A stretch of 6,197 nucleotides of DNA. It comes from a virus. Lineage: Duplodnaviria > Heunggongvirae > Uroviricota > Caudoviricetes. The notes beneath the pieces are model-generated. The model was given only the letters and a program-made list of their open reading frames with translations, ran no database searches and was not told where the DNA came from. Below, piece after piece: positions 1,467 to 1,856 of this stretch; position 1 is the first letter of the stretch; each line of letters starts with the position of its first letter. Location of the stretch: the IMG/VR virus record IMGVR_UViG_2531839128_000014; one strand, given 5' to 3'. A program made the translations under genes and the position numbers.

Positions 1467-1856
1467 ATGTTTCTGAAACAGGATACGTTTAATTACGGCA
1501 ATCAGTCGGTGGTACTGAATGAACTGTCTGGTCTGCAGCGTGTGGAATACCTGGCTTATGCCCGTGAACGCGCGGCGCAGTTTGATGAGGCTTCTGCAGG
1601 AATGGAAGAAGGGGCCCGCCAGATTGCTTTTATGGAAATGGGGATGGACATCAACGCCTGGCTGGTTTCCCGTTCGCTGTGGAATGCCGACCAGTCTCAG
1701 AATGTGGCGGCGCTTTTTTCCTCCGTGCGCGTGACATGGTCCTGGGATGCGCTGGGGATGGCGGCGGAAAGCATTCTGGCGCTGAGCGGTATGGCACTGA
1801 CAGTGGCGACAGAGGGGGATGACGTGAAGGAGGTGCTGACGCCGGAAAAGTCCTGA
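1467..1856 (+). CDS. G: Tail assembly chaperone (lambda gpG family), 129 aa
   Basis: Supplied ORF 1467..1856. The N-terminus MFLKQDTFNYG...LNELSGLQRVEYLA resembles lambda gpG as I recall it (MFLK...LSELSALQRIEHLA). It follows V and is followed by a T-like ORF in the -1 frame. GGGGAGA Shine-Dalgarno at 1453-1459. Confidence 0.88.
   Translation: MFLKQDTFNYGNQSVVLNELSGLQRVEYLAYARERAAQFDEASAGMEEGARQIAFMEMGMDINAWLVSRSLWNADQSQNVAALFSSVRVTWSWDALGMAAESILALSGMALTVATEGDDVKEVLTPEKS

Follow-up and report, generated by a model that had tools for sequence, protein, structure and literature searches.

[quoted passage not shown] This reading rests on the comparison of the G/T junction with its relatives. 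Most ribosomes would translate the 0-frame codons around the site, CCG GAA AAG TCC TGA, and stop there, giving G (129 aa). A small fraction of them would slip back one base on G GAA AAG and continue on GTC CTG ACG..., which would give a 242-aa GT with the junction ...LTPEK|VLTREMQF.... By homology with lambda, the G parts of both G and GT would bind the tape measure protein H, and the T part of GT would recruit the major tail protein V.

Gene layout and the G/T overlap

The window, by which we mean the whole 6,197-nt stretch of DNA that was analysed, covers the tail-shaft portion of a lambdoid prophage, as is seen from its ORFs and Pfam matches. The ORF of U (212-613) is followed by V (636-1406), which matches PF16461 and carries a C-terminal Big_2 domain. 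Gene G occupies 1467..1856 on the plus strand, defines the 0 frame, and encodes a tail assembly chaperone of 129 aa (Pfam PF06894, Phage_TAC_2, E=4.9e-35). T is an open -1 frame on the plus strand at 1823..2194, and its translation matches PF06223 (Phage_tail_T, minor tail protein T, E=5.4e-15). The tape measure gene H, which matches TMP_2 and Tape_meas_lam_C, runs from the ATG at 2166 to 5231 and is followed by the ORF of M (5231-5560) and by the start of L. In the gene order V, G, T, H, the two overlapping ORFs are flanked by the genes for the major tail protein and the tape measure. For H, the ORF lister puts the start at a TTG at 2136; the start annotated in phage mEp460 corresponds to the ATG at 2166, which is preceded by GGAGGTG (2153-2159) and from which H overlaps the end of T by 29 nt. 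Between V and G there is a terminator-like hairpin (1426-1445) followed by a T run to about 1452, and mEp460, N15, and HK97 have a rho-independent terminator annotated in the same intergenic position. This hairpin probably attenuates the expression of G, T, and H relative to V.

The exact G protein is present on 406 contigs named Escherichia coli, and the exact 109-aa T sequence initiated at an ATG is present on at least 1000 contigs; the source is therefore an E. coli prophage. Over G and T, the nearest sequenced phages are cdtI, mEp460, Tritos, and Ayreon, with 85% identity, and relatives with 80-90% identity were found in about 1850 complete E. coli genomes. The comparison with mEp460 also revealed a sharp mosaic joint at about position 1836. 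The identity of the window to this phage is 55-87% across V and G to about 1835, and 98-100% from about 1836 onward, over the shift site, T, and almost the whole of H. The jump in identity marks a recombination boundary in the conserved sequence of the G-T junction, so V and G derive from one lineage and T and H from a second one.

The C-terminus of G reads ...DDVKEVLTPEKS*, with the TGA stop at 1854..1856, and the -1 frame from 1823 to 2194 reads REGGADAGKVLTREMQFVMRLAREF.... The last -1-frame stop upstream of T, a TGA at 1820..1822, forms the 5' limit of the region in which a shift can take place; with the G stop on the other side, the overlap is therefore 1823-1856, or 34 nt, all of these features being on the plus strand. 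A motif scan of 1823-1856 identified GGAAAAG at 1844-1850 as the sole in-frame X_XXY_YYZ or Z_ZZN motif in the overlap. Its P-site codon is GAA for glutamate and its A-site codon is AAG for lysine, the -1 codons would be GGA and AAA, and the G stop lies one codon past the heptamer. An earlier note on this DNA had given the same 34-nt limits, had named G GAA AAG as the only shift-prone motif within them, and had put the G stop 3 nt past the heptamer, and all three statements are borne out by the stops and by the scan. In-frame A_AAG is rare in the genes of the window, with three occurrences in 1862 codons, from which the chance of finding one in a 10-codon overlap is about 1.6%. GGAAAAG occurs once more in the window, inside H at 2862, but not in frame.

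The post-shift portion of the predicted GT (1850..2194, plus strand; GTC CTG ACG ... TGA) was modelled as part of the fusion and aligned with known GT proteins. The GT of the window aligns colinearly and end to end with that of lambda (...SAGK|VFDGELSF...) and that of N15 (...TAEK|ALASELKF...), and the lysine at the slip site falls in one column in all three. Transcriptional slippage was considered as another route to the fusion and rejected, the run of A being only 4 nt, a homopolymer far too short for this process. The pattern used to recognise transcriptional slippage in PMC3711429 is a homopolymer of 8 nt or more.

Conservation of the site and the predicted slip

Homologues of G were gathered from a large protein database, which gave 258 matches down to about 50% identity. 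The C-terminal linker of these homologues is acidic and hypervariable; nearly all of the 258 proteins still end in (T/S)PEK(S/P/F). At the DNA level, the loci collected were 33 from bacterial contigs (one genome per species) and 80 from IMG/VR, and lambda, N15, phi80, HK97, Gifsy-1, HK225, mEp043, a Stx2a phage, and PhiR30_1 were added to them. The scan of viral contigs yielded only close E. coli relatives and little extra diversity. The 124 related loci comprise 41 distinct junction contexts, and [G/A]G[G/A]AAAG is found in frame, inside the G/T overlap, in every one of them (41/41).

Clustering of the G proteins at 70% amino acid identity produced 19 clusters, of which 14 carry G_GAA_AAG, four G_GGA_AAG, and one A_GAA_AAG. 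The first group includes Escherichia, Salmonella Gifsy-1, Citrobacter, Symbiopectobacterium, Proteus, Xenorhabdus, Erwinia, Serratia, Buttiauxella, Enterobacter, Kosakonia, N15, phi80, and HK97. The second is made up of lambda, the Stx2a phages, a Serratia/Symbiopectobacterium group, and Edwardsiella, and the single remaining cluster is that of Morganella. At the homologous position, every cluster (19/19) has AAG as its A-site codon, and the A_AAG core (1847..1850, plus strand), on which a tRNA-Lys slip from AAG to AAA is predicted, is invariant in all 41 junction contexts. In E. coli, AAA is the commoner lysine codon (PMC3296357, Table 2). The codon that precedes the motif ends in G in 18 of the 19 clusters and encodes four amino acids, Pro, Ala, Leu, and Arg (CCG, GCG, CTG, and CGG). 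The earlier note had suggested aligning G-T junctions as a check on whether GGAAAAG is conserved, and these counts, 14 clusters for the full motif and all 19 for the in-frame core, answer it in the affirmative.

A profile search of 1.84 billion representatives at 50% identity retrieved about 70 full-length G proteins. About 49 of these end in ...EK plus 0-6 residues, 4-5 end in GK, about four in AK, and a few in KK or PK. The DNA of the remote exceptions (L125-L130) reads A GCA AAG at two loci, A AAA AAG, C CCA AAG, A AAA AAA, and, directly before the stop, GCA AAA. The codon AAA takes the place of AAG in only two of these distant relatives, L129 and L130.

The relatives also delimit the position of the shift. 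The G stop follows the motif after 0, 3, or 15 nt, and the -1 frame opens 3-12 nt ahead of the motif, with the minimum of 3 nt in an Edwardsiella locus (L031); in Proteus and Morganella the G stop directly follows AAG. With the -1 frame opening as near as 3 nt on one side and a stop right after AAG on the other, the site would be confined to the motif, provided that the mechanism is homologous. The Proteus loci (L013-L016) and the Morganella locus (L022), which read GAA AAG TAG or TAA, have a "shifty stop" arrangement, and in Morganella the first heptamer position is A rather than G, for which P-site re-pairing would be very poor.

Since AAG stays constant while the P-site codon may be GAA, GGA, GCA, AAA, or CCA, the invariant element is a shifty lysine codon preceded by A, namely AAG, or AAA in the two distant relatives. 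A variable P-site codon is the pattern expected if the tRNA-Lys slip is essential and the P-site codon merely tunes the rate, and it supports such a division of roles. The single E. coli tRNA-Lys (mnm5s2UUU), whose part in the decoding of A_AAG is described in PMC5009743, would shift from AAG to the better-matched AAA. Slippage mainly by the A-site tRNA, as the earlier note had proposed, thus gains support from the invariance of A_AAG in all the clusters. Heptamer position 1 is nearly always G, which suggests a continuing contribution from near-cognate re-pairing of tRNA-Glu on GGA. That note had also held that a move from GAA to GGA needs a central mismatch, as does PMC6924986, where it is described as a second-position mismatch. 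Re-pairing is indeed imperfect, but positions 1 and 3 stay paired and the middle position becomes G.U, so that tRNA-Glu would at best re-pair near-cognately on GGA rather than be unpaired. The layout of the genes, their homology, and the place and conservation of the site are seen in the DNA; slippage itself, its rate, and the number of tRNAs that move, one or two, are inferred.

The free-energy model of PMC6787027 gives an approximate measure of the balance between the two frames. A change from A.U to G.U costs about 5 kJ/mol, a value that was measured at the first codon position, second-position mismatches being outside the tests of the model. The change of the A-site wobble pair from G.S to A.S brings a gain of about 3 kJ/mol. 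With the first-position value extrapolated to the middle G.U, a cost of about 5 kJ/mol would be set against this gain of about 3 kJ/mol, and the -1 state would therefore be only mildly disfavoured.

Stimulatory elements, efficiency, and alternative readings

Both sides of the site were searched for stimulatory elements. The fold of 1851-1950 in the window is unremarkable (z=-0.96), the 60 nt past the motif in 23 diverse relatives have no shared hairpin or spacing (z from -1.8 to +1.3), and Rfam has no match anywhere in the window. A downstream stimulatory RNA was rejected on these three results; a stable hairpin or pseudoknot 5-9 nt downstream, as at dnaX, is absent here. The upstream side holds a candidate dnaX-like stimulator, the 9-nt sequence AAGGAGGTG (1827..1835, plus strand), which is a perfect complement of the 3' end of 16S rRNA. 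The GGAGG core of AAGGAGGTG ends 10 nt ahead of the heptamer, and its anti-Shine-Dalgarno (SD) duplex of about -15 kcal/mol exceeds that of every site in the body of G. Stimulatory SD sequences have a range of 6-17 nt (PMC4066793), and the SD-like element of dnaX is located 10 nt upstream of its site (PMC6924986). There is no start codon at a usable distance downstream of AAGGAGGTG, so it is not an initiation site.

Pairing of AAGGAGGTG with 16S rRNA to boost -1 shifting on a weak site, as in dnaX, would be a lineage-specific supplement to slippage on G GAA AAG, and its strength and its spacing speak for it. We regard this role as possible though unlikely. The element is not conserved: only one lineage has it, made up of six IMG/VR contigs, E. 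coli 52F4, and the window. At the 1827-1835 position, GAGGCG or GAGGTG is all that is found in the common E. coli relatives, and no SD-like sequence was found at the homologous position in phi80, N15, or lambda. Anti-SD pairing 6-17 nt upstream of the motif is not enriched across the family (median rank 0.36 against the body of G), and on this ground a family-wide upstream SD stimulator was rejected. Internal SD-like sequences just as strong are present at 1102 and 5955 of the window, and the linker is rich in Glu, Gly, and Lys codons, a source of chance SD-like strings. The two internal sequences, AGGAGGTGGTCA in V (1102-1113) and AGGAGGTGATCA in L (5955-5966), are very strong, at about -20 kcal/mol against the 16S 3' end, and no obvious start codon is associated with either.

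Work on this and similar sequences speaks against a high efficiency. G GAA AAG yielded mostly 0-frame product in a reconstituted E. coli system and served as the "less slippery" control for G GGA AAG (PMC6924986). On its own, the A_AAG tetramer shifts in vivo at about 0.15%, barely above background, and a strong pseudoknot is needed to raise this to 5.6% (PMC4066793); that paper and PMC5009743 both describe A_AAG as shifty in E. coli. The 5' codon modulates the efficiency at A_AAG and NNA_AAG sites, according to PMC4066793 and to the summary of Licznar et al. 2003 in PMC5009743. For two HK97-like tail chaperone genes of unstated heptamer, Antonov et al. 2013 give 6-7%. Given that the majority motif slips poorly in purified systems and that no stimulator is conserved, the GT:G ratio of the G_GAA_AAG class may differ markedly from that of lambda, probably in being lower; or the class may be sensitive to context or to the state of the host, since mnm5s2U34 is present in both tRNA-Glu and tRNA-Lys. 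Lineages might then retune the ratio through an upstream SD-like sequence, and the sequence at 1827-1835 would be a recently acquired dnaX-style stimulator. We put this set of proposals forward as a doubtful one.

The poor slipperiness of G_GAA_AAG in vitro (PMC6924986) and its departure from the canonical X_XXY_YYZ form might be taken to favour a shift elsewhere in 1823-1853, an option that the earlier note had left open. We find this highly improbable, given that the overlap has no second Z_ZZN motif, that the rest of it is hypervariable among relatives, and that the relatives bracket the motif, with the -1 frame opening 3-12 nt before it and a stop right after AAG. One transition separates GGAAAAG from the GGGAAAG of lambda, and the site might thus be read as a decayed lambda-type heptamer that no longer works in a defective prophage. 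However, the plaque-forming phages N15, phi80, HK97, mEp460, HK225, and mEp043 carry GGAAAAG, which is also the majority state across genera; this reading, already contradicted by the presence of the motif in viable phages, has next to no chance of being right.

The view of RefSeq and of the PGAP pipeline is that T is made independently from the ATG at 1865, with no need for a frameshift. This ATG does exist in the T frame in the window lineage and in mEp460-type relatives, and PGAP and many submitters annotate a "phage tail assembly protein T" of 109 aa. The evidence from the DNA makes independent synthesis very improbable: the only upstream purine-rich stretch, GGGAA, abuts the ATG at 1865 and so leaves no usable SD spacing, and the ATG itself is not conserved, being CTG in Gifsy-1 and Citrobacter and CAT in Proteus. 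Phi80 and Morganella lack a start codon among the 20 T-frame codons that follow the motif. The T-frame residues K-V-L-x-R-E upstream of the ATG are conserved, as expected if they are translated, and the longer pattern KV(L/V)..E..F.(M/L).LA(R/H)EF is conserved right after the motif, upstream of any start codon. T lies in the -1 frame and has neither a conserved start codon nor a ribosome binding site of its own. Levin et al. are said to have found in 1993 that lambda makes T sequences only as part of GT. Together these sequence features indicate that a free-standing T from the ATG at 1865 is an annotation artefact. A better annotation would consist of G plus a G-T ribosomal-slippage join at 1850; the NCBI pipeline propagates a separate 109-aa T.

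Relation to known frameshift systems

The -1 frameshift at G GGA AAG in lambda G/GT (Levin, Hendrix and Casjens 1993, as reported in PMC5009743 and PMC3296357) is among the closest models for the slippage proposed here. By definition, a system of this type makes GT at a few percent of G and needs it to assemble tails, a product that is predicted for the window. The two systems share the PF06894 and PF06223 families, the place between V and H, the frame relation, the lysine in the same alignment column, and the A_AAG core, and neither has an obvious downstream structure. They differ at heptamer position 3, which is G in lambda and A in the window, so that the P-site codon is GGA for glycine in the one and GAA for glutamate in the other, and P-site re-pairing in the -1 frame is cognate in lambda, whereas in the window it would be near-cognate. 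The G stop follows the motif after 15 nt in lambda and after 3 nt in the window, and the G proteins are 32% identical.

Other tail gene junctions carry the same heptamer as the window. In genes 14/15 of N15 and in the G-T pair of phi80, the heptamer is again G GAA AAG, with frame and homologous position unchanged. GGAAAAG bears a misc_feature, "slippery sequence for -1 translational frameshift", in the GenBank record of N15, and the phi80 record (FN582354) likewise marks it as a slippery sequence. In contrast to the window, both have GCG rather than CCG as the preceding codon and a stop 15 nt rather than 3 nt downstream, and they lack the upstream SD-like sequence that the window has. The motif G GAA AAG is also found in HK97, Gifsy-1, and mEp460/cdtI, and HK225 and mEp043 carry it too. 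Gifsy-1 and mEp460 match the window exactly over ...CCG GAA AAG TCC TGA. The Gifsy-1 record describes T as "part of gpG by translational frameshifting". HK97 has more divergent G and T and a different preceding codon, CGG GAA AAG being the sequence in its G/T overlap, for which a -1 frameshift join is annotated at gp13; in the mEp460 and cdtI records, G and T are annotated as separate genes with no join.

By the properties of the slippery sequence itself, the site belongs with the NNA_AAG sites and not with the canonical X_XXY_YYZ heptamers. The first three bases of a canonical heptamer are identical, and those of the window are G_GA; the A-site half, A_AAG, can re-pair as AAA in the manner of Y_YYZ. 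The in-frame A_AAG, a single host tRNA-Lys (mnm5s2UUU) to read it, and a P-site codon that varies among homologues are features of the A_AAG and NNA_AAG class. Sites of this class, such as G_CGA_AAG of IS1222 and A_CGA_AAG of the Bacillus cdd gene, are presented in PMC4066793 and in the summary of Licznar et al. 2003 in PMC5009743. As described in these sources, the tRNA-Lys move from AAG to AAA is essential at such sites, as is predicted here, and the codon before AAG does not permit cognate re-pairing, which is likewise the case in the window. The insertion-sequence sites are said in the same sources to need a strong downstream pseudoknot or hairpin, and none is detectable in the window. The E. 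coli dnaX site, A_AAA_AAG, resembles that of the window in its A-site AAG and in an SD-like sequence about 10 nt upstream, which the window lineage has as well. Unlike the window, dnaX has cognate P-site re-pairing, an essential downstream hairpin, and an efficiency of about 50%, and the window differs in turn by an SD-like element that is not conserved and by the lack of a hairpin.

Nothing here amounts to a new kind of system. The feature is already known, GGAAAAG being the majority motif, which has long been recognised. The earlier note was correct that the heptamer differs from that of lambda, by one base, but the novelty this implied does not hold for a majority motif that is annotated in N15 and phi80. 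The majority motif, G_GAA_AAG, is the one that biochemists have used as a "less slippery" control. The series GAA, GGA, GCA, AAA, and CCA in front of A_AAG provides a natural set for assessing in vivo what P-site re-pairing contributes to low-level -1 shifting. By its layout, homology, frame, and motif conservation, the window would be one more member of the lambda-type G/GT systems, with a predicted GT product, and the textbook G_GGA_AAG of lambda is a minority state within its own gene family.
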